Assembly (NCBI GenBank): GCA_963799775.1
Contig: CAWCYD010000003.1
Location: forward strand, 832,001 to 896,000
Reading direction: 5' to 3'
Source: an uncultured archaeon
GTDB lineage: Archaea; Thermoproteota; Nitrososphaeria; Nitrososphaerales; Gagatemarchaeaceae
DNA length: 64,000 nt
Under the pieces are notes generated by a model. That model was not told the origin of the DNA. It was given only the letters and a program-made list of their open reading frames with translations, and did not search any database. Both the position numbers and the translations under genes were made by a program. Of the stretch, positions 39,762 to 51,569 are shown in pieces. Positions within the stretch are counted from its first letter, which is position 1; each line of letters opens with the position of its first letter.

Positions 39762-41159
39762 TTGTTCCAGTACTCCGTGCTAGGACAGCAGACCCGAAGA
39801 AACGCCGCTAAGATAGCGACGGCAGCAACTATAGTATTGATATCACTAGGCCTCGTTTCATATCCTGGTGCTAGACTCGTCTCAGCGACGACGACTCCAG
39901 CTGGCGTGATGATACCCCTCTACGTCTACCCGGGCAGCGCGTGGACGGCCATCATCCAAGCGAAGCAGGCCAACCCCTCGGTCCCGGTGATAGCGATAAT
40001 CAACCCCAATAGCGGGCCTGGGAGCGCCTCTGACCCCGCCTATGTCTCCGGCATCCAGCAGCTCCAGGCCGCGGGGATCATGGTCTTGGGATACGACCAC
40101 ACGAGCTACGGGGCCAGGTCGGTGACCGACGTGGAGGCCGACGCTGCGCACTACAACTCCTGGTATCACGTCAACGGCCTCTTCTTCGACGAGATGGCTG
40201 CCACGACTGGATACGAGGGCTACTACTCGACGATAAACGCGTACGCAAAGTCGCTCGGGATGACCTACACAGTCGGGAACCCCGGGACGACGCTCCCCTC
40301 GAGCTACATGGGGATACTCAACAACCTCGTGATATACGAGGACTCGGGACTCACAGCGACCTCGAGCCTCCCCTCGAGCTACCCTGGATCTTCCGCGGGG
40401 GAGTTCTCCGTGATCTCATACGCCGACCCAGAGCCGACGACCGCCCAAGTCCAGGGCATCGCCGCCAACGTGGGCTACGTCTACTTCACCGACGCAAACC
40501 TCCCGAACCCCTACGGCGCGCTCCCGAGCTACCTTGCAGCGGAGGTCTCGATGCTCGCGTCACCGAGCACGCCCAGCACGACCACGGCGACCACGACCTC
40601 CAATCCGCCGGTCACCACCACGACCTCGAACCCGCCCTCGACCACGACGACCACGGTGACCCAGGTCCAGTACACGACGGTGACCTCCACAGCGACCGCC
40701 TACGCCACCACGACGGCGACCGCCCAGGCGACGGTCACCTCCACCCACACGGCCAACACCACGACCACGAGCACCCAGACGCTGACCGCGAACGCGACCA
40801 CCACGGACACGACGACCGAGACCGCGACGGCGGTGACGACCGGGACTCAGACCGTCAACTCGACGCTCACTGACACTGCGACCACCACTCAGACGGAGAC
40901 GGAGACCGCGACCACGACGACGACCATGACGCTCACGGCGCAGGCGCCTGTCGCTCCGCCCGCCCTTGCGGCGCCGGCGTTCTTCTCAGGGGTTGTGATG
41001 AACTCGACGTCCCCGATCGCGAAGCCGACACCGGCTCCGAGCGCGATAGCCTCCATCAGGAATGCGGTGGTGGACGCCGCGCAGGCGGTGAGGGCGGCCT
41101 TCGCGGACGTGCTGCAGCACTTGGGACATGCGCTGCAGCTGCTGACATCGGTCTTCTAG
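39762..41159 (+). CDS. Secreted spherulin-4 family (GH135-like) glycan hydrolase with Thr-rich stalk
   Basis: Signal peptide, IPLYVYP, IINPNSGPG, GYDHTSY, GLFFDE, GNPGT, VIYED, VYFTD; long Thr-rich region; amphipathic C-terminal helix. Confidence 0.85.
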   Translation: MFQYSVLGQQTRRNAAKIATAATIVLISLGLVSYPGARLVSATTTPAGVMIPLYVYPGSAWTAIIQAKQANPSVPVIAIINPNSGPGSASDPAYVSGIQQLQAAGIMVLGYDHTSYGARSVTDVEADAAHYNSWYHVNGLFFDEMAATTGYEGYYSTINAYAKSLGMTYTVGNPGTTLPSSYMGILNNLVIYEDSGLTATSSLPSSYPGSSAGEFSVISYADPEPTTAQVQGIAANVGYVYFTDANLPNPYGALPSYLAAEVSMLASPSTPSTTTATTTSNPPVTTTTSNPPSTTTTTVTQVQYTTVTSTATAYATTTATAQATVTSTHTANTTTTSTQTLTANATTTDTTTETATAVTTGTQTVNSTLTDTATTTQTETETATTTTTMTLTAQAPVAPPALAAPAFFSGVVMNSTSPIAKPTPAPSAIASIRNAVVDAAQAVRAAFADVLQHLGHALQLLTSVF

Positions 41160-42823: not shown

Positions 42824-44890
42824 TTAACGCCACTCGCGAGGGTATCGCCAGTCTGACCCGTGCGACCGGAAGCTCACCCTGAATATCTCGGGCGGGTAGC
42901 GCTTGTGCTGGGTCTTCTTTACGAGACCCACAATCCGCTCTACCCGCTCTCGCGGCACCCCGAGCTCTTTCGCGACCTGCTCCTCGCTCTCCCAGAGGTC
43001 GAACCTGTGGTAGAGTATCCTGTCGAGCAAGAAGTAGTCGATGCCGAGCTCCCCCTCCGCCGACTGGCCCTCCCACAGCCCGGGCGTGGGGGGCTTGAGG
43101 TAGACGGTCTTTGGGAGGCCAAGGTGGGCGGCGAGCTGCCTCACCTGCGTCTTGAAGAGGTCGCCCAGGGGCAGGACGTCCACCCCGCCGTCGCCGAACT
43201 TTGTATTGCCGCAAAAAGCGTAGTTGCCATTCCGCTCGACAAGCATGTTTTCGAATGGAGGAACCGAGGGGCACCAGACTTTGCCCTTGTAGGGTATCCT
43301 CCTCGCTTTTGAATTATCCAGCTTTCGGGTCCTCATAACGGCCCTAGCATAAGTTATCGCGTAACTAGTCGACGACCTGATTACCTTGCCACTCTTCAAT
43401 CTCGAAACCTTGGGTGGCTTCGTGCTGACCTTCGGTATTCTCCCGAGCTTGACGCACAATTCTACAAAGTCGTCCCGCAGGCGTAGTGAGCTAGTGTAGT
43501 AGACTTCCGGCCCCGCTTGGTTACCGTCGCTAGCTCTTAGTCCTCGGGCTAGAAACACGAGATACTCAGATGGATAGTCCAGTACCCATGGTGGAATGCG
43601 TTTTTGGATTGCGCCGAACCCACATTGCGAAAAGAGGTCGAATAGGCCTTTTGAGGGAATTCTGACCAAGTCTTTCGTCAAGGAATAGCCGATCCCATAC
43701 TTTTCAAGCACAGCAACCAATTGCGTTCTGGCTTCGTTCTTGGTATAGCTCGGGAGCGCAAAATCCGTCTCGTAAGTGTCATAGACCTTCATTGACGGTT
43801 TTGAGACGCCAGGAGAGAGTTGGACGAATTTCCCGCGCCGATCGCGAGCAAGAGCCTGGTACTCCGCCCTAGTAAGATTCGACTTGGCTGGGACCTTTGC
43901 TGTGCCTCTAATTGCAGAGCCATCACCAATGAAAAGTCCGAAAACGAAGAACAAGTCCTCGATCTCAATTGAAATCGTTCTCTCGATGTGCCTCTGGCTG
44001 AAGGTCACTGGGAATTTTGTGAGGAGACCTTTCTTCCCATCCCAACCCGCTGGCACCGGAAGGATCGTGTTCCTGCGGCGTAAGCATTCTTCTGCTGTTC
44101 GGAAAGCCGGTTTCAGATGCTTGGAACGGCCTGGCCACGAGGGGTGAACCAACATTCGATGGTTGGGTGTGACCAAGAGATCGGTGTTCACAGACTTGAA
44201 ATTAATCATGTCGCCATCGTAGTCAAATATGAAGATGTCACCAATGTTGGACTCAACGAGCTTGCCCGAGTTCATATCATACGAGAACACAACATCGTCT
44301 CTCTGCAATTCTTCCAGGCCTCTCGGACCTGATTTTGTCACTACTCGCGTCTTCTCATCATAACAGAAGTAGCCGATGGTGAGCTCCGACTTGTCCCCCG
44401 TGCCCACCACCAGGGCCTTGTGGCTCTGGGCGAACGCGTGGAGGAGGACCATCCTGACGCGGGCCTTTACGTTGCCCACGACCAGCCTGTCCTTCGCGGC
44501 TCCGCCTATCGCCCCCGTGAACGCCCTCACGAGAGGGTCTATCGGCATCTCCTGGAAGTTCCGCTTCGGGACGTTCAGGGCCTTGAGGACCGCGGCGACG
44601 TCCTCTTGGTCCTGCCGGGAGGTCGAATCGCTCGGGAGGTAGTAGAGGTGCACTCGCGATGGGCCGACCGCCTTGACGGCGATCGACGCCGCCACGGAGG
44701 AGTCGACGCCGCCGCTCAGCCCGAGGACGGCCGCCTTTCCCTGGGAGTATTGCTCGAGATACTTCCGCAGGCGCTTTACGAGGTATCCGACGACCTCGTC
44801 CCCGTCGACCTTGAGCTCCTCGGGTATCTTGTCATCGAAGTCCGATCCGGATTCGAGGGACCTCGCAACCAGACTTTCGGCTCTCTTCAT
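42824..44890 (-). CDS. nadE: NAD+ synthetase (synthetase subunit) interrupted by an intein
   Basis: LGLSGGVDS, GNVKARVRM, GTGDKSE, GYF|TKFGDGG, GDLFKTQV, KPPTPGLWEGQ, QHKR; start could be as far up as 44974. Confidence 0.95.
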   Translation of the reverse strand: MKRAESLVARSLESGSDFDDKIPEELKVDGDEVVGYLVKRLRKYLEQYSQGKAAVLGLSGGVDSSVAASIAVKAVGPSRVHLYYLPSDSTSRQDQEDVAAVLKALNVPKRNFQEMPIDPLVRAFTGAIGGAAKDRLVVGNVKARVRMVLLHAFAQSHKALVVGTGDKSELTIGYFCYDEKTRVVTKSGPRGLEELQRDDVVFSYDMNSGKLVESNIGDIFIFDYDGDMINFKSVNTDLLVTPNHRMLVHPSWPGRSKHLKPAFRTAEECLRRRNTILPVPAGWDGKKGLLTKFPVTFSQRHIERTISIEIEDLFFVFGLFIGDGSAIRGTAKVPAKSNLTRAEYQALARDRRGKFVQLSPGVSKPSMKVYDTYETDFALPSYTKNEARTQLVAVLEKYGIGYSLTKDLVRIPSKGLFDLFSQCGFGAIQKRIPPWVLDYPSEYLVFLARGLRASDGNQAGPEVYYTSSLRLRDDFVELCVKLGRIPKVSTKPPKVSRLKSGKVIRSSTSYAITYARAVMRTRKLDNSKARRIPYKGKVWCPSVPPFENMLVERNGNYAFCGNTKFGDGGVDVLPLGDLFKTQVRQLAAHLGLPKTVYLKPPTPGLWEGQSAEGELGIDYFLLDRILYHRFDLWESEEQVAKELGVPRERVERIVGLVKKTQHKRYPPEIFRVSFRSHGSDWRYPREWR
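43205..44365 (-). mobile_element. Intein (387 aa) with LAGLIDADG homing endonuclease in nadE
   Basis: Block A CYDEKTRV, block B VTPNHRM, LAGLIDADG FGLFIGDG and ARGLRASDG, block F/G VWCPSVP..FCGN followed by Thr; lower GC than the exteins. Confidence 0.93.
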
Positions 44891-44994
44891 GGGCAAACCT
44901 TGGAACGCGTTCCTGCGGGCTGCGTGGTCGGTCTCCCTCATAATGCTATGGTGGCGCTTATTTGCCAGTCCCACAATATCGGCTACTAGCCGTT

Positions 44995-45162: not shown

Positions 45163-45171
45163 CGATCTTTG

Positions 45172-45525
45172 ATGGCATGCAGGCCCGACGAAACATTGCT
45201 GCTCAGATATCTCGGCGCCAGCCCGACATTGAGAATCATAGACTTCTTCATGGACAATCCGCTGTCAGACTACTCGAAGAACGAAATCGCGAAGAATCTG
45301 GCCATGAGCCGCGTGACCTTCTTCAAGTACTGGAAGGAACTTGAGACTTCGGGCGCGGTAAAAGCCACAAGGCACATCGGACGAGCAACGATGTACAAGC
45401 TCGACAGGGCCAACGACGTCGTGAAGCAGCTGATCAAGCTGGACATGACCATTTCGAGAAAGACGATGCAGAAAGCGGTCGAAGAGTATCAGAAACCGAT
45501 CACTGTGAAATCAACGTCTCGCTAG
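45172..45525 (+). CDS. Winged-helix DNA-binding protein, copy 1
   Basis: LGASPTLRIIDFF, YSKNEIAKNLAMSRVTF HTH, TRHIGRATMYKL wing. Confidence 0.85.
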   Translation: MACRPDETLLLRYLGASPTLRIIDFFMDNPLSDYSKNEIAKNLAMSRVTFFKYWKELETSGAVKATRHIGRATMYKLDRANDVVKQLIKLDMTISRKTMQKAVEEYQKPITVKSTSR

Positions 45526-45654
45526 GACCAATCAATGGGCCTCGACGCCCCCAAACCCCCCAAGTCTACTGACTCATTGCGAGCCTCTCAGTGATATAAT
45601 AAACTCAAAATGATCTGTGATGGGCCTGAAGGGATTTCGTTCGATCTTGGGAGC

Positions 45655-46541
45655 TCACAGGGACTCTAAAACTCTGTGAAACTTCTGCCTGTGGTCCTTG
45701 AACGAGCTGAGGCGCCTCGCCCTCTCGACCTCGGACATGTCGAGGCTCACCGTGAGGAGGTCCGGCTCGTATCTCTTGGCGCTGGCGACCACCTCGCCGC
45801 TGGGGGAGACGACCATCGACCCGCCCCAGAAGTACTCCTCCTCTTCCGCGCCCGCGCGGTTTACGAAGACCATGAAGACGCTGCTCATCAGGGCGTGGGC
45901 CGAGAGCAGGCTCCTCCACTGCCTCTCGATGAGGGGCTCGCCTTTGGCGTTGGGCCTGTGTATCCCCCTAGCGGGGGACGAGGCGATGCAGAAGACGACG
46001 TCGGCGCCTTTTCTCGCCAGGGCCTCTGTGGGCTCCGGGTGCCACGCGTCCTCGCAGATGATGACCCCGAACCTCACGCCGGCAGAGGTGAAGGTGCGGA
46101 CGTCGCGCTGGGGGTCGCCAGGGGTGAAGTATCGCTGCTCCTCGAAGAGCCCGTAGGTGGGGAGGTAGAACTTGGGGACCGAGCCGACCAGCTTCCCCTT
46201 GCTGAGGACCGCGGCTGCGTTCTGGACCAGGCCAGCCCTCTTCTCCTTGACGTATCCGACCACGCAAGTGCGGCGTCCTGCGGCCCTTGCGATGCCCTTC
46301 AGCGCGGCCTCGCACTTTCCCGGGCCTCGTAGGCCAGGTCTTTGAGCATGTAGCCCGTGAGGGAGAGCTCCGGGAAGGCCACGACGTCGGTCTTCTCGCC
46401 GCCGAGCTTGTCCAAGATGGCTGCGTGCTCCCTCTCGTTGCTCTGGACGTCGCCGATCCTGGAGGAGAGCTGGGCCAGGGACACTTTCAGGCTTGAACCT
46501 CTTGACCTTCCTGCGCCTCCTTCTCGTGCTTGAGGATTCAT
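45655..46541 (-). CDS. Nitrilase-superfamily amidase; probable stand-alone glutaminase subunit of NAD synthetase; frameshift near 46320
   Basis: VSLAQL, FPELSLTGY (Glu), KFYLPTYGLFEEQRYF (Lys), ICEDAWH (Cys), FWGGS; same strand just upstream of nadE. Confidence 0.88.
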
Positions 46542-46801
46542 CTGGCGGCACCTAGTCTCATGGGGCGTCTCGCGGCCATAAGTTTCCGCTCCCCTAACCG
46601 ACGCCAGCCTTCTGCAAGCTCTCTTCCGATCCGCGCCTCCTTTACATCAATCAACTGCCAAGCGCCATAGCAGGCCGAAAGCCTTCGAGTCTCGCGGGTG
46701 AGGCGAAGAACCACGTCTGTGAAGCTCTCGCCCTCCGCCCTCTCACACCGAAGCGCCTCGTAAGCCTCTCTCGTTATCGAGACGCTCTTGTTTGGCATCA
46801 T
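46538..46801 (-). CDS. Orphan VapB-type antitoxin (COG1753/DUF217-like)
   Basis: KSVSITREAYEAL..GESFTDVVLRL..GAW; stop overlaps the nitrilase ATG; palindromes ATGCGCGCAT and CTATGCATAG at and just upstream of the start. Confidence 0.8.
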   Translation of the reverse strand: MMPNKSVSITREAYEALRCERAEGESFTDVVLRLTRETRRLSACYGAWQLIDVKEARIGRELAEGWRRLGERKLMAARRPMRLGAAR

Positions 46802-46906
46802 GCGCGCATGGTTGCCTATGCATAGATGAAGTTTTCACGATAATTTCTGGCTGGCCCGGGGGCCACGATGTTGGTTTCTTCGCGATCCGCTGTGTCCTGT
46901 TCGAAG

Positions 46907-47188
46907 TCACACATCAGGAAAGAATCTCCGCATGGATGCCATTATCGCCTCGCTCTGCCGTGGATTGAGCGAGACCTGCAGGCCGTAGGAAGTAGGCTTT
47001 GGAATCATCGCACCCTGGCGGATCAGCTCTCTCGTCATCTGGTCGACCCGCTTCAGCCCATGCTTTCCGAGCTCGGACTGATTCCAGCCCTTGATGAGGT
47101 TGTCGAGGGCGGTGTGGCTCGCACCCCAGTTTCCTCTCTTGTGAAGCTTGAACATCAACGTCGCCTTGATCTCATCGTCGGAGAACAT
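46907..47188 (-). CDS. Hypothetical basic protein (93 aa), divergent from wHTH copy 2
   Basis: Clean ORF with WGASHT and KPTSYGLQVSLNP; AT-rich shared promoter with imperfect direct repeats. Confidence 0.7.
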   Translation of the reverse strand: MFSDDEIKATLMFKLHKRGNWGASHTALDNLIKGWNQSELGKHGLKRVDQMTRELIRQGAMIPKPTSYGLQVSLNPRQSEAIMASMRRFFPDV

Positions 47189-47252
47189 GAGTTCACTTAT
47201 GATACTTTGAACGATTAATCTTATATACTTTCAAACCTAACAAAATATCTTG

Positions 47253-47615
47253 ATGGGATACAAGCCCGACGAAACACTCCTGCTTCGATATCTCGGCGCC
47301 AGCCCGACGCTGAGAATCATAGACTTCTTCTTGGACAATCCGCTGTCAGACTACTCGAAGAACGAAATCGCGAAGAACCTTGCCATGAGCCGCGTGACCT
47401 TCTTCAAGTACTGGAAGGAACTTGAGACTTCGGGCGCGGTAAAAGCCACAAGGCACATCGGACGAGCAACGATGTACAAGCTCGACAGGGCCAACGACGT
47501 CGTGAAGCAGCTAATCAAGCTGGACATGACCATTTCGAGAAAGACGATGGAACGAGCGGTCGAAGAGTATCAGAGACCGATCACAGTGAAGTCAAGGCCT
47601 TCTAGGGCCGGCTAG
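47253..47615 (+). CDS. Winged-helix DNA-binding protein, copy 2
   Basis: About 94% nt identical (manual count) to 45172..45525. Confidence 0.88.
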   Translation: MGYKPDETLLLRYLGASPTLRIIDFFLDNPLSDYSKNEIAKNLAMSRVTFFKYWKELETSGAVKATRHIGRATMYKLDRANDVVKQLIKLDMTISRKTMERAVEEYQRPITVKSRPSRAG

Positions 47616-47644
47616 TCGTGCTCCAAGGCGCCCCAGATCTGGGA
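47592..47644 (+). repeat. Inter-cassette direct repeat R1
   Basis: TCAAGGCCTTCTAGGGCCGGCTAGTCGTGCTCCAAGGCGCCCCAGATCTGGGA, aligns with R2 and R3. Confidence 0.85.
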
Positions 47645-47763
47645 CTAGGCTGAGACCCCCCGTGTCTTACTATGGGCGTGGTGACTCCGAGGCCAAACAC
47701 CATCTTATGAGAAATATGGCATTAGATTTATATTCTGGTGATGCATCGTTTGAGGGAAGCGAG

Positions 47764-48015
47764 ATGAGCAACGTGGAGGTAAAGGAGATTGACGAGCAGG
47801 GGCGCCTAATAATCCCGAAGAAATGGAGGAGCATGGTCCTCAAGGGGGACAAGGTGGTCCTGAGACTAAAAGAGAACTCGATTGAGATCGAGCCCTGGAA
47901 GAAGCCCGACCTCACCCGCTTCTTCGACAGCGTGGAAGCCGACGTGAAGAGCGACCTGTCGGACTGGCGCGCCGTGAGGAGGGAGCTCAGGAGGCGTCCC
48001 GATGAGGTTCGCTGA
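47764..48015 (+). CDS. vapB: AbrB/MazE/SpoVT-type VapB antitoxin
   Basis: IDEQGRLIIPKKWR, GDKVVL; overlaps the PIN gene. Confidence 0.88.
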   Translation: MSNVEVKEIDEQGRLIIPKKWRSMVLKGDKVVLRLKENSIEIEPWKKPDLTRFFDSVEADVKSDLSDWRAVRRELRRRPDEVR

Positions 48016-48421
48016 CAGCAACGTCTTCGTCCATGCGTTTCTAAAGCCGAGGCGAGACCTCTCAGAGTCGGAGAAAAAGCTGAAGGAGGACGCGAAGAAG
48101 ATAGTCTCCCGGGTCAACTCAGGCGAGAAGGTCATGACCTCGGTGGTGCACATCGCCGAGATAGCCAACATCCTCGAGGACAACCTCGAGGCGGGGGCCT
48201 CACAAGAGATACTCAGGTCCCTCTTGATGAACGAGCATCTGGAGATAGACAGCGTCTCTAGAGAGGACTGTCTGTCGGCGATGGGCGAGATGGAGGAGCA
48301 CTCGCTCGGGCTCAACGACTCGATAGCGCACGCCGTTATGAGGAGAAACGGCCTCGTCGAGATCTACTCGTTCGACAAGGACTTTGACAGGCTCGACGAC
48401 GTCACAAGGGTCAGCCGGTGA
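48002..48421 (+). CDS. vapC: VapC PIN-domain toxin
   Basis: RFADSNVF, HIAE, LGLND, YSFDKDFD. Confidence 0.92.
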   Translation: MRFADSNVFVHAFLKPRRDLSESEKKLKEDAKKIVSRVNSGEKVMTSVVHIAEIANILEDNLEAGASQEILRSLLMNEHLEIDSVSREDCLSAMGEMEEHSLGLNDSIAHAVMRRNGLVEIYSFDKDFDRLDDVTRVSR

Positions 48422-48492
48422 AGTTTGAGCTCGAGATAGATGTCAAAAGGGATCAATGGAACCCCCTCGCTGATGAAGCTGAAATGGAACTT

Positions 48493-48584
48493 TCTCTGTC
48501 CTTCTCTCAAGGGCCTTCTAAGGCCGGCTAGTTGTGCTCGAAAGGAGCCCAACGTCTGGATTCGGAAAAAGACCTGTGAGTCGT
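48493..48584 (+). repeat. Inter-cassette direct repeat R2
   Basis: TCAAGGGCCTTCTAAGGCCGGCTAGTTGTGCTCG...TGGATTCGGAAAAAGACCTGTGAGT, closely matching R3. Confidence 0.88.
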
Positions 48585-48698
48585 CAACAAGTTTCAGCCA
48601 ACTGAAAAGCGGCGGGCTGGACCGACTGTGACTTTGCAGGCAGGGACGGTGGAGGAAGTTAAATTGGAATTCGAAGACATGGATAGTCGCATAGCGAA

Positions 48699-49091
48699 AT
48701 GGAATACCCAACTCACGATGCTGTCATCAGATTGCACGAGAAAATAATCAAACAATCGGGCGGCCATCAAGGCTTCGTGAGCGTTTCGAATCTGGATTAC
48801 CTACTTGAGACGGCCAGAGACATTGGAGAAGCGTCCCAGGAGGAAAAGGCCGTCGTTCAGAAAGTCGGGTATATTCTCTTCAATTTGGTGAACCTTCATC
48901 CGTTCTTGGACGGCAACAAGAGGACGGCATACGAGGTAGCGAAAGCCTTCCTCAACTTGAACGGCTGGGATATCAAACCCTCAGAAGACGATGCCTATTC
49001 TACGCTAAAATCGATCGCTTCGGGCGAACTGGATGCCCAAGCCACCGAACGCTGGGTAGGAAGGAATTTAAGGAGAAGGCGGAAAGAGTAG
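48699..49091 (+). CDS. doc: Fic/Doc (death-on-curing) family toxin
   Basis: HPFLDGNKRTA motif; 130 aa Doc-like size. Confidence 0.92.
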   Translation: MEYPTHDAVIRLHEKIIKQSGGHQGFVSVSNLDYLLETARDIGEASQEEKAVVQKVGYILFNLVNLHPFLDGNKRTAYEVAKAFLNLNGWDIKPSEDDAYSTLKSIASGELDAQATERWVGRNLRRRRKE

Positions 49092-49099
49092 AAAGTAAC

Positions 49100-49216
49100 A
49101 TGGCGAAGCAAGTTCAGGCCAGGAATCAGAAAGAGATAGACAGGGATTTCCTAGCCTTGGCTGACGAGAATCTCAAGAAAGACGCGAAGCTTCTCAAGAA
49201 GCTTGCCGAAGTCTAA
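49100..49216 (+). CDS. 38-aa peptide downstream of doc, candidate antitoxin (below ORF cutoff)
   Basis: MAKQVQARNQKEIDRDFLALADENLKKDAKLLKKLAEV*, 8 nt after the doc stop; amphipathic LLKKLA tail. Confidence 0.65.
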   Translation: MAKQVQARNQKEIDRDFLALADENLKKDAKLLKKLAEV

Positions 49217-49230
49217 GTCACGTTAGAACA

Positions 49231-49324
49231 TCTCTGCCCGCTGCTTTCAATGGCCTTTTAGGGCCGGCTAGTTGTGCTCGGAGGCGCCCAAGATTTGGAT
49301 TCGGAAAAAGATCTGTGAGTTGTG
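49231..49324 (+). repeat. Inter-cassette direct repeat R3 (distal part of the putative ncRNA)
   Basis: TCAATGGCCTTTTAGGGCCGGCTAGTTGTGCTCGGAGGCGCCCAAGATTTGGATTCGGAAAAAGATCTGTGAGT. Confidence 0.88.
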
Positions 49325-49449
49325 AGCTCTGATTGTCTTGCGAACGTGAGCTGTGAGCTTTGAGCTGTGATTCCGGATTTCTCAGTTCCCAGCTGAATCG
49401 CATTCCTCTTCCACCCCTCGGCTTCCTCTTCCACTCTATTCCGGCTATC
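49250..49449 (-). ncRNA. Putative structured RNA / 3' element with heptamer repeats downstream of the DIP1984-like gene
   Basis: Seven 7-nt units (CTCACAG consensus on the minus strand) in blocks of 4 and 3 at 49313-49371, a doubled GTGGAAGAGGAA, a possible enclosing stem and a terminal GGCC hairpin; no convincing ORF. Confidence 0.45.
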
Positions 49450-49930
49450 CTAGGCCGTGATCTCTATCTTGTGGTTCGCCTCTTGAATCGCCGAGTCCAG
49501 AAGGTTCACTCCGCTTCCTATAGAGCAACTGCATCTCGAGAAGCTCGGGTTTTGATTTCTGTGCTCTTTGCGGGCACTCGTCCTTGGACCTCCGTTCCTG
49601 AGCAAACAGACCACCCCTTCTGTTCACCTCGACCATAGAGGAGAGCGACGTAAGTTTGGAACGGATTGCGCTGAGTTCCAATATGGCACGCGCAAGCGTC
49701 ATTTCCTTCTCACCTGCCTTCACCCTGTTCTCCAGGTTCGCGAGCTGGATCGCTATCTTGAGGTCGGCTATTCGCTCCATGGTCTTGTCGATCTGCTCGG
49801 AGAGCTGGTCGAACTTGAAGTCCGGCTCTGTGTCTGAATCGTATGCCAGGCTCGACTCCCGGAACTTTGAGAGTTCGTCCGTGGTGGTCTTGAGCGTCTT
49901 TACCTCCGCGAGAGCTTCGTAGATTTTCAT
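49450..49930 (-). CDS. DIP1984-like (DUF6847-like) coiled-coil protein, 1-nt frameshift near 49510
   Basis: Two-fold internal pattern MKIYEAL..AIQLAN / MTLARAI..; corrected C-terminus VNLLDSAIQEANHKIEITA*. Confidence 0.8.
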
Positions 49931-49956
49931 TGGCTTCAACCCCTTGCAGACGGGGC

Positions 49957-50032
49957 TTTATATTCCTTACAAGTAAAGAATCCTTGGGCTTGGCTTAAGA
50001 ATCCTTTACTTTCTGGGAAAGTAGGAATCCTT
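49957..50032. promoter_or_regulatory. Divergent promoter/operator between the DIP1984-like and AbrB genes
   Basis: Minus-strand TATA (ATATAAAG) near 49956-49963; near-palindromes ATTCCTTAC-AA-GTAAAGAAT and TACTTTC-TGG-GAAAGTA; GAATCCTT three times. Confidence 0.65.
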
Positions 50033-50194
50033 TTGGCCGTCGAAATCTTGGGTACGAGCCGTCTCAGTGCGAAATTCCAGATCACAGTCTCCAAAGATGT
50101 GAGAGAGAGATTCAATCTCTCCTCCGATGACCTGATCGTCTTCTGGGACGACAATGGCAGACTGGTGCTTCGCAAGAGCACAGACAAACAGTGA
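50033..50194 (+). CDS. Stand-alone AbrB/SpoVT-family regulator (53 aa, below ORF cutoff)
   Basis: MAVEILGTSRLSAKFQITVSKDVRERFNLSSDDLIVFWDDNGRLVLRK; no toxin follows. Confidence 0.85.
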   Translation: MAVEILGTSRLSAKFQITVSKDVRERFNLSSDDLIVFWDDNGRLVLRKSTDKQ

Positions 50195-50531
50195 CTCTCT
50201 GGCAAGTCGGGTTGCATTACTAACTCATGTCGGGACATATATTAGCGCCCATGCGGGCTTGCACGGCCCCTCGCCGTATGTCTCGCGGTTTGCGCTACTT
50301 CCCGATGGCCCGAACCAAGGAGAGAACGCTCTCAGGAACCATTTCTTTCCTTTCACCGTCCGCCAAGATCTCGCGGCGAATATCAAACGCCGTCTGAGAT
50401 GACGTTCGAAGATCCCGGTATGGAGACGTGCAGGGAATGCAGCGCCTTGATGTTTTCCGTAGCGGTCTTCCGGAGGTCGAACCTATCGAGGAAGTCGTTG
50501 ACTTGCCTCCAGACCTTCCTACCCCTCATCT

Positions 50532-51360
50532 CTAGACTCCGCCGCACCCGTTTGTGCAGGTGTACCAGGCATCCACGCTTGTGCCGTCGGCGACTACAGC
50601 CAACGGTCGCGTGTTGCCACCTGTGCCCCAGTGGTCGAAGAGAACATCGTGGGTTGAGCCATGGCACAGATCGCAGTCACTAGGATAGATGTAGTACGTG
50701 GCACCCACAGTCAGACCGGTGAAGGTGTGCCCGCCTTCGTCTGCGAATCCTGTAGCGACCACGTTACTACAGCCGGGGTCGGAACAGAGGCTGACCCACA
50801 TCGACGCCCCGGGGCCGGAGCAGCTCGTGGTGCACCACGCGGTCGGGTTGGCGCAGGCCGTCGCGAAACATGGGGCCCAGTAAGTAGCGTAGACCCTGTG
50901 GTCATAGATCGTTATCGTTCCCGTCCCGCTTCCAACGCTGGTCGATGTAGTGGTTGTGGTACTAGTTGTTGTAGTGGCAGTAGTGCTGGTAGTCGTAGTG
51001 GTGGTGGTCGGCGTCCCGGGGGTGACTTCGCCGTAGGATCCGTACGTAGTCTGTGAGCCGTACGGGCCGGCAAGGATGTACGAGGTCCCTGATGGGTAGT
51101 ACGCGCCGGCGGCGTTATTGGCAGCCCCTGGACTCGCAAAGTTGCATTGGACCACGCTGACTCCGCCCGGTACGCTATCGCCAAAGGCCCAGGGGTTCGA
51201 AGGCGGAAGAGGCGTCGACCCGGTGATGGTCTGAGGGCAAGAGCTCGACGAGGTGGTCGAAGCGGTGGAAAACGAAGTGGCGCCTGCGTTAGCGAAAGAT
51301 AAGGTGATCATAAGAATAGAGGCTAGAATGGCCAGTGGCGTCCTAAGGGCCCGTTTCATG
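50532..51360 (-). CDS. Secreted Cys-rich protein with Thr-rich linker
   Basis: Signal peptide, poly-Thr linker, C-terminal beta-rich domain (TFTGL..YYIYP..FDHW) with many Cys including CDLCH. Confidence 0.75.
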
Positions 51361-51569
51361 AATGCATTACAGCGGAATCTTCGAAATGGATATCCCACTA
51401 ATCTTAGGTAATCATCTTATGGGAGCTAAGTGCGTCAAAGGGACAGGGTCGGCCTCCCCGCGAGGAGGATTGCCATTACAGAGTTGGCAGACCTTTGGCC
51501 AATTCGGCTATTTATGGTAGAAACAGGCAGCAAAAACACAATTAACGGCTCGCCAGCCATGCGGCTGAG

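Follow-up and report, generated by a model that had tools for sequence, protein, structure and literature searches.

A conserved heptad-repeat element downstream of archaeal DIP1984/DUF6847-like genes: a candidate structured 3' RNA

In type III toxin-antitoxin systems such as ToxIN, the antitoxin RNA consists of repeats of approximately 34-36 nt, which precede the toxin gene and are processed by the toxin, an RNase. Integron attC sites follow a cassette gene at its 3' end and fold back with bulged bases. The HutP protein is described as binding NAG motifs in two clusters of three, which have a period of 7 nt (contacts at A4, A11 and A18) and are parted by a 17-nt linker (PMC2425495), while the omega protein (ParB) of pSM19035 is described as binding 7-10 consecutive 7-bp repeats of 5'-WATCACW-3', with at least four contiguous repeats for full activity (PMC9499535). 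Here, an element of approximately 205 nt located downstream of a DIP1984/DUF6847-like gene is described from an uncultured archaeon and compared with these systems. It lies in a 64-kb stretch (contig CAWCYD010000003.1, positions 832,001 to 896,000; hereafter the window) and contains a tract of heptamers (heptads). To our knowledge, the DIP1984/DUF6847 family has no known function; a structure was reportedly solved in 2009. The heptamer tract is taken, with modest confidence, to be the core of a conserved folded 3' RNA of the DIP1984/DUF6847-like mRNA, in which the heptads would act as a platform for a protein multimer, the cognate dimer being the most economical candidate.

The element is under selection and co-inherited with the DIP1984-like gene. 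A covariance model (R1) built from 12 close-homologue elements matched all 14 Nitrososphaerota close-homologue loci with at least 200 nt of downstream sequence at 131-219 bits (the window, the same-genus genome G007, L009, L010, L013-L017, L019-L021, L023 and L026). L018 had only 5 nt downstream and was left out of the count, and in L026 the element was directly 3' of the gene. In every close homologue with enough downstream sequence, the 195-215 nt past the stop codon aligned throughout. The mean nucleotide identity over 55 pairs was 0.709 for the element, 0.713 for the coding sequence (CDS) and 0.52 for the following 200 nt. The element was present in 4 of 23 genomes of the genus as a single copy each, and no orphan full-length element was found in these 23 genomes. 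The protein subfamily is rare, with 2 carriers among the 401 genomes of a class-level sample and, by Pfam detection, 1 among 401 sampled from the phylum, this genome being included in both counts. PF20935 was recorded for 27 of 29 close homologues.

In the window, the earlier note had described GTGGAAGAGGAA twice, followed by four heptamers, a 10-nt spacer and three further heptamers, and sequence reading, a repeat search and Tandem Repeats Finder placed all of these as described (Table 1). Tandem Repeats Finder reported a period of 7 with 3.6 copies and a score of 43 at 49346-49370. The best 28-nt window had 20 of 28 matches at lag 7, a value reached by none of 300 shuffles (mean 12.1, maximum 17). 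The repeat search returned the GTGGAAGAGGAA duplication as a family (D4) of two 17-nt copies 20 nt apart; other loci have a single GAGGAA and a small hairpin at this place. The last heptad, AATCACAG, reads AATCACA and is nearly invariant across 13 elements.

Alignment of these 13 elements (A6) points to a folded RNA of the mRNA strand. RNAalifold produced a long closing helix (P1) between the stop-codon region and the last 13 nt, together with a GGAA/UUCC helix. Local RNAalifold on sub-windows gave no helices, and the P3 hairpin (UUCAG-CUGGGAA-CUGAA) and the central hairpin were therefore added by hand and then counted. Across the 37 pairs in A6, a small set of related sequences fitted to the model, 91.0% of the cells were paired compared to 27-52% with the partners slid by 1-3 columns. 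The covariation that had been proposed as a check on the region downstream of the homologues was found, with 10 of the 37 pairs varying on both sides and a covariation score that none of 500 shuffles equalled. For example, column pair 12/212 in P1 is CG in seven sequences, UA in four and UG in one. The GGAA/UUCC helix (helix 5) was 100% paired with one-sided changes only, and the central hairpin (helix 7) was 64% paired overall and intact in one clade only. G-U pairs numbered 42 compared to 11 A-C pairs, an excess which points to an RNA of the sense strand. The conserved closing helix is different from the long-range stem first proposed (GGAT..CGGAA with TTCCG.ATCC), which was paired in 60.7% of the cells across the 13 elements and was equalled by 314 of 500 shuffles, and that stem was abandoned. 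The GGCC hairpin described after that stem is present at 49265-49252 in the window and is not kept in the G007-like clade.

A search of the 64-kb window against Rfam 15 gave no match at gathering score. Within 49150-49550 the best hits (E 0.9-3.9, 11-12 bits) were to unrelated eukaryotic or small nucleolar RNA models, and no match at E≤1 was found for L020, L013, L031 and L022. Other identities for the element were considered and rejected. Open reading frames (ORFs) of 56-60 codons ending in ..TSRP* cross it in several loci; a coding role was rejected because the lengths span all three mod-3 classes and close relatives show 1-nt indels, as between the L015 and L020 elements. A tRNA or tRNA-fragment integration site was rejected with ARAGORN, which found none in the window or in 12 loci. 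By-eye motifs resembling a C/D box, a hammerhead (CUGAUGAG, in some loci) and a K-turn were not conserved across loci and had no Rfam match. Finally, a miniature inverted-repeat transposable element was rejected, the element being a single full copy per genome that is always linked to the gene.

Analogous elements or heptad tracts were found at more distant archaeal homologues. Five Bathyarchaeia homologue loci have an analogous downstream element of approximately 200 nt (protein identity of 36% for L022). Its closing helix, GGGG-AGA-UCRGG with CCYGA-CCCC, carries the same AGA bulge, its central hairpin covaries (CUGCGU/ACGCAG, CUCCGC/GCGGAG and GCGCC/GGCGC) and three heptads follow 3' of this hairpin, e.g., ATTACAG ATCAAAG ATCAACC. 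In this small set of five related sequences, 91.9% of the cells over 25 pairs were paired compared to 25-43% when slid. A Heimdallarchaeota homologue, from a phylum with homologues in 9 of 301 sampled genomes, is followed by CTCAACG CTCAAGG ATGAAAG ATGAAGG ATCATCT. Several Asgard loci have long heptad runs, such as GATTAAA GATTACA GATTAAT.. and AAATCAA AAATCAA AAATTAA.., and lag-7 periodicity reached p≤0.015 in six of the nine Asgard homologues. The heptad sequence varies with the protein subfamily (CUCACAG, GAUCAAR, GAUUAAA, AAUCAAA). Four Asgard loci (L064, L066, L067 and L070) also have hairpins resembling a tRNA T-arm (4-5-bp stem, loop UUCGAAU or UUCGACU) just before the heptad runs, where ARAGORN found no tRNA.

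Periodicity was compared over lags 3-12 in the 300 nt downstream, the 300 nt upstream and the first 300 nt of the CDS. Downstream of the homologues, where a 7-nt periodicity had been anticipated, lag 7 was the sole best lag in 14 of 27 archaeal loci and reached p≤0.05 in 13 and p≤0.01 in 7. Upstream (26 loci), it was the sole best lag in none and reached p≤0.05 in one and p≤0.01 in none, and in the CDS (27 loci) all three counts were zero. The signal is confined to the downstream sequence, and the periodicity is therefore a downstream-specific trait of the family. The earlier note had mentioned 7-mer tracts after homologous genes elsewhere. This is true of archaeal homologues, with 14 of 14 testable close homologues, five Bathyarchaeia loci and six of nine Asgard homologues, and does not hold for the 12 Acinetobacter loci that were examined. 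A profile search of genomic and viral contigs for bacterial or viral homologue loci gave no relatives, and tblastn of the family members P0080 against plasmids and P0045 against phages gave no matches.

It is hardly credible that the tract lacks a function and arose by chance, as a low-complexity expansion in intergenic DNA undergoing decay. The window copy does have the most regular heptads, an adjacent duplication and a frameshifted gene, yet the element is as conserved as the CDS over the 55 pairs, its helices covary and it recurs in three archaeal lineages.

The heptads might instead be double-stranded DNA iterons bound by AbrB or by the DIP1984-like protein, serving as an operator or as a centromere-like site in the manner of omega/ParB of pSM19035. 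Both systems have contiguous 7-unit repeats with a similar core (WATCACW compared to AATCACA/CTCACAG), in arrays of three to four units here. The omega site, as described, resembles the near-invariant last heptad (PMC9499535), and an AbrB regulator adjoins the module in five loci. However, omega binds promoter sites in double-stranded DNA as a ribbon-helix-helix dimer and works with a ParA ATPase, whereas the helices here covary as RNA. Iterons would leave unexplained both the compensatory changes between arms approximately 190 nt apart and the preponderance of G-U pairs (42) over A-C pairs (11). In addition, the heptads are all on one strand, downstream of the gene and not at a promoter, and AbrB is absent from most loci. 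The iteron explanation is thus considered quite unlikely.

The structure of the protein was predicted from the intact G007 orthologue. The model (predicted local distance difference test, pLDDT, 85.6) has the four-helix bundle and beta-hairpin fold of PDB 3KDQ, an uncharacterised protein of Corynebacterium diphtheriae, with Foldseek template modelling (TM) scores of 0.82-0.85 and a VIA-align Z of 13.7 (root-mean-square deviation 3.3 over 149 residues); other fold matches were generic helical hairpins. A symmetric homodimer was predicted with a score of 0.77 compared to 0.01 for the best control, with at least 96% of contacts agreeing among three runs and a partner pLDDT of at least 87. Of 30 known homodimers, 20 reached the mark used for this prediction, as did 1 of 23 monomers, and the pass may reflect memorisation by the predictor because the 3KDQ entry holds several chains. 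The predicted interface takes in a conserved basic loop (residues 119-125). The predicted homodimer is compatible with oligomerisation and is no evidence of RNA binding.

Sequence searches placed the protein in a widespread family, with 152 clusters (50% identity) that match the DUF6847/DIP1984 profile. Among PDB sequences, phmmer found only a chance match to the orthologue (E 0.056), the BFVD fold search gave uncharacterised phage proteins only and PHROGs gave a 'tail fiber protein' family over the N-terminal half (E 3.8e-7). None of the matches listed in the literature search named DIP1984, DUF6847 or PF20935. In the ESM Atlas, PF20935 is linked to the label 'putative Septicolysin'. Acinetobacter plasmid genes are named septicolysin-like and described as a pore-forming cytolysin in reports where the name rests on annotation (PMC3358182, PMC5559437), and the cytolysin label appears to rest on annotation as well. 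The 153-aa DUF6847 gene of Acinetobacter (L035-L061) belongs to the helical 3KDQ-type family, and nothing seen backs the cytolysin label. The proteins of 3KDQ and Acinetobacter share the fold of the archaeal ones, unlike which the Acinetobacter members examined have no downstream element.

In the favoured architecture, a long irregular closing helix (UAGG, a 3-nt bulge, GCCGGC and UAG with CUA-GCCGGC-CCUA) would enclose a purine-rich segment, a small hairpin whose loop reads CUGGGAA and, on either side of a short hairpin or spacer, two arrays of three to four unpaired heptads (consensus about NUCAMAG). The heptads, spaced at 7 nt in two clusters, would serve as the platform on which a symmetric protein multimer binds. 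The likeliest partner would be the DIP1984-like protein encoded just upstream, a predicted dimer, because the heptad sequence follows the protein subfamily and heptads and protein always occur together in the archaeal loci examined. Gene and RNA may then make up a module of two parts, which would act as a ribonucleoprotein that regulates its own expression or as an effector neutralised by the RNA, and which would travel as one unit from one toxin-antitoxin island to another. Ribosomes that terminate at the stop codon, which lies within the closing helix, might open this helix and couple translation to the fold.

An RNA that is real and structured could also work without the DIP1984-like protein, as an mRNA stabiliser or terminator, or after processing to a small RNA, which might sequester a host RNA-binding protein or base-pair with other transcripts. 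The same structural and conservation evidence would support it; the DIP1984-like protein is not basic, and with several GGAGG-like runs in the purine-rich 5' half and C/A-rich heptads, other partners are conceivable. Such an RNA is nevertheless unlikely, since three lineages show strict co-inheritance of the element and a single gene family, the heptad sequence shifts with the protein subfamily and no orphan full-length copy was found in the 23 genomes of the genus.

Several observations weigh against the platform reading. Both alignments are small and of related sequences, and A6 was fitted to its model. The minimum free energy z-score of the window copy alone was only -0.81, although its single-sequence fold does form P1. 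A conserved U5 tract inside the element could end archaeal transcription before the 3' strand of P1 is made. The periodicity test was crude, and lag 7 was not the sole best lag in 13 of the 27 archaeal loci (L010, L026, L031, L033 and L070 among them). No heptads, only a terminator-like hairpin, were found in the 12 loci examined among the Acinetobacter loci (within L035-L061), which were reached by a published primer and count as one lineage because they are nearly identical. For the protein, the fold searches gave no RNA-binding relative that stands out beyond 3KDQ, the family is near neutral (median pI 6.6, n=70) and PADLOC (2023 library) assigned no family to the orthologue, the window ORF or AbrB.

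The platform reading finds its nearest parallel in HutP and the hut RNA of Bacillus subtilis. Both have two single-stranded clusters of approximately three motifs with a 7-nt period and a structured or G-C-rich linker between them, and in both the RNA adjoins the gene of its regulator, or proposed regulator; in HutP, the clusters are read by two faces of a symmetric multimer. Unlike HutP, the protein here belongs to a different family, as Pfam and NCBIfam gave only DUF6847/DIP1984 and neither HutP nor TRAP. HutP reads NAG in a 5' terminator, whereas the motif here, NUCAMAG, belongs to a 3' element with a long closing helix, and no antitermination target is located downstream. Type III toxin-antitoxin systems share with this locus a small mobile protein and a cis-encoded repeat RNA among toxin-antitoxin and defence genes. 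They differ in that the repeats here are of 7 nt, downstream and within one folded RNA, and PADLOC found no match.

A bolder proposal, which is held only tentatively, is that archaeal DIP1984/DUF6847 proteins combine with their 3' heptad RNAs in a class of two-component module that has so far gone unrecognised. Protein dimers would line up on the two heptad arrays of the RNA from their own gene, one unit per 7 nt, in a defined ribonucleoprotein, and the protein would stay inactive or assembled for as long as the RNA is in place. Such an RNA-held effector would differ from type III toxin-antitoxin systems in the length and location of its repeats and in the fold of its protein, and in toxin-antitoxin islands it would be a new layout among selfish or defence modules. 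It would also provide an initial clue to the function of a family whose members on bacterial plasmids carry the wrong label 'septicolysin'. That a covarying RNA always accompanies the gene, and equals it in conservation, suggests that the family works with nucleic acid. The element would be a structured RNA common to Nitrososphaerota, Bathyarchaeia and Asgard archaea, for which we know of few described cis-encoded structured RNAs, and the heptad motif, varying with the protein subfamily, would provide a natural specificity series.

The 3' end of the element has only three same-orientation copies in the 2.47-Mb genome, the full one included (Table 1). These copies bound three cassettes in the window, two of the copies being fragments of 50-90 nt from a single conserved element. 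They first suggested a cassette-boundary repeat, a view that was changed because the whole element aligns in the homologue loci. The element could be a recombination site at the end of a mobile cassette, similar to a folded attC, with the partial copies as exchange scars. Like attC, it stands at the 3' end of a gene, folds back with a bulge and ends exactly at a cassette boundary: homology to relatives stops exactly at its 3' end (49252), the module of G007 is in a different context, the three terminal copies of 50-90 nt separate single cassettes within 2 kb and the strands of the closing helix make up an imperfect inverted repeat in which a bulge is conserved. Unlike attC, it has no integrase nearby. 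Five tyrosine-recombinase matches (PF00589; C3:9052, C3:121276, C3:490561, C3:1384949 and C2:20665) are all more than 340 kb from the window (C3:832001-896000) or on another contig. The sequence is conserved throughout its 205 nt and not just at the ends, it is tied to one gene family and it is single-copy in each genome save for the two fragments in the window, extra partial copies being found in none of 17 other loci. No R''/R' core pair was seen, no test for the GTTRRRY consensus having been made. A recombination site is accordingly regarded as improbable.

The gene of the window differs from its intact orthologues by one extra base near 49507-49510, which was placed by comparison with the 159-aa orthologue of G007 and with 26 aligned homologues. 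The window ORF matched PF20935 at 27.0 bits (cut-off 27) and NF038048 at 36.4 bits (under the subfamily cut-off of 70), in both cases at profile positions 1-98 only; coverage is confined to the N-terminal two thirds because of the frameshift. There is no unbroken frame through the C-terminal helix (..LD..IQEANH..) in the window gene. The conserved C-terminus (..NLLDSAIQEANHKIEITA, stop TAG 49452-49450) and the ending of the intact orthologues (..NLLDSAIQEANHKIEI..) were both found in the second frame, and the corrected stop codon given in the earlier note was right. Contigs of two approximately 90%-identical relatives have one base fewer, at 49506 or 49508, and the sole 100%-identical contig in three DNA read sets ends at 49503, just before the frameshift site. 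The frameshift may be a sequencing or assembly error instead of real. The window copy of the module looks degenerate, with a frameshifted gene, a duplicated purine-rich part and 3'-end fragments beside neighbouring cassettes.

Table 1. Features of the locus in window coordinates. Element coordinates are read on the minus strand.
Feature	Position	Strand	Remarks
DIP1984/DUF6847-like gene	49450-49930	minus	ATG at 49930; one extra base near 49507-49510; uncorrected frame stops at 49445-49447
Conserved element (approximately 205 nt), candidate structured RNA of the 3' untranslated region	49249-49455	minus	True stop codon to ..CTAGCCGGCCCTAA; R1 181.3 bits, E 3e-41, model positions 1-214
5' strand of closing helix P1	49436-49452	minus	UAGG (including stop TAG 49452-49450), 3-nt bulge, GCCGGA, A, UAG; columns 4-20 of A6 pair with 205-217
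GTGGAAGAGGAA, two copies	49403-49434 (49434-49423, 49414-49403)	minus	Window-specific duplication in the purine-rich 5' part
Hairpin P3, UUCAG-CUGGGAA-CUGAG	49381-49397	minus	Closing pair G-C in 6 and C-G in 5 sequences (helix 6)
Heptad array 1	49344-49371	minus	ATCACAG 49371-65, CTCAAAG 49364-58, CTCACAG 49357-51, CTCACGT 49350-44; homologous arrays in relatives
10-nt spacer TCGCAAGACA	49334-49343	minus	Short hairpin here in relatives, CUUCC-GNRA-GGAAG in one clade
Heptad array 2	49313-49333	minus	ATCAGAG 49333-27, CTCACAA 49326-20, CTCACAG 49319-13
UCUUUUUCC tract	49303-49311	minus	UUCC able to pair with conserved GGAA 49407-49404 (helix 5); possible archaeal oligo-T terminator
3' strand of P1, CUA-GCCGGC-CCUA	49259-49271	minus	Homology to all relatives stops just beyond
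GGCC-CTAAAA-GGCC hairpin	49252-49265	minus	Overlaps the 3' strand of P1
AbrB/SpoVT-type regulator, 53 aa	50033-50194	plus	TIGR01439 29.7 bits (cut-off 28.3); no toxin partner
Divergent promoter region	49931-50032		Three direct AAGGATTC (49978-85, 49999-50006, 50025-32), imperfect inverted repeat, TATA-like ATATAAAG
Module (AbrB, DIP1984-like gene and element)	49252-50217		Contigs of two approximately 90%-identical relatives lose likeness at 49252/49241 and 50217
Partial copy B	48493-48584	minus	Last ~70 nt of the element and ~20 nt beyond; upstream of the Fic/Doc cassette; 83% identity to 49231-49323; weak R1 match 48568-48610
Partial copy A	47592-47642	minus	Last ~50 nt of the element; overlaps the 3' end of a winged helix-turn-helix gene; 87% identity to 49247-49298

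The toxin-less AbrB gene described as divergent from the DIP1984-like gene was recovered through its match to the looped-hinge-helix AbrB domain profile TIGR01439, its PF04014 score of 20.2 bits being under the cut-off of 24.7, and the same divergent pair is found in G007. Exact AAGGATTC occurs four times in the 64-kb window, with three of the copies within 55 nt of the divergent promoter. The promoter region was 75% identical over the four AbrB-carrying loci aligned, and because of this conservation the AAGGATTC copies are probably the AbrB operator. Palindromic operators had been claimed over both promoters; one imperfect inverted repeat was present beside ATATAAAG, and the main repeats are the three direct copies. 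AbrB and the promoter region accompany the module in 5 of the 16 loci searched (the window, G007, L010, L017 and, in part, L020), so AbrB, as a regulator, is optional and does not define the module; its control of the module was not upheld as a general claim. Other loci have neighbours of RelE/RHH (ribbon-helix-helix) type, HicAB type or winged helix-turn-helix type instead, as read by eye. The interpretation in the earlier note, a protein that oligomerises on its own 3' repeat RNA under AbrB control, is partly supported: it stands for a heptamer-repeat RNA tied to DIP1984-like genes and not for the stem, the role of AbrB or generality to bacteria.

The neighbouring genes seen are of toxin-antitoxin type, and the G007 module sits between different genes. 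Between the element fragments, 47662-48421 holds a toxin-antitoxin-type cassette of an AbrB/MraZ-like gene and a PIN gene. Another such cassette at 48699-49216 consists of a Fic/Doc gene and a 38-aa ORF (49100-49216) without family match. A winged-helix gene of approximately 120 aa is present in two copies (45169-45529 and 47250-47609; 93% identity over 361 nt), and their likeness ends a few bases from the start of partial copy A (47592), which suggests a recombination joint. The G+C content of 46500-50500 (0.51-0.55) is below that of the genome (0.588), in keeping with the acquisition of an island of small cassettes. Further away, a 716-aa ORF (42824-44974, minus strand) resembles a NAD synthetase with a large insert and intein-like features, as judged by eye from the translation. 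Finally, predicted secreted proteins with long Thr/Ser-rich stretches are encoded at 39762-41159 (plus strand) and 50532-51398 (minus strand), the second without Pfam match.

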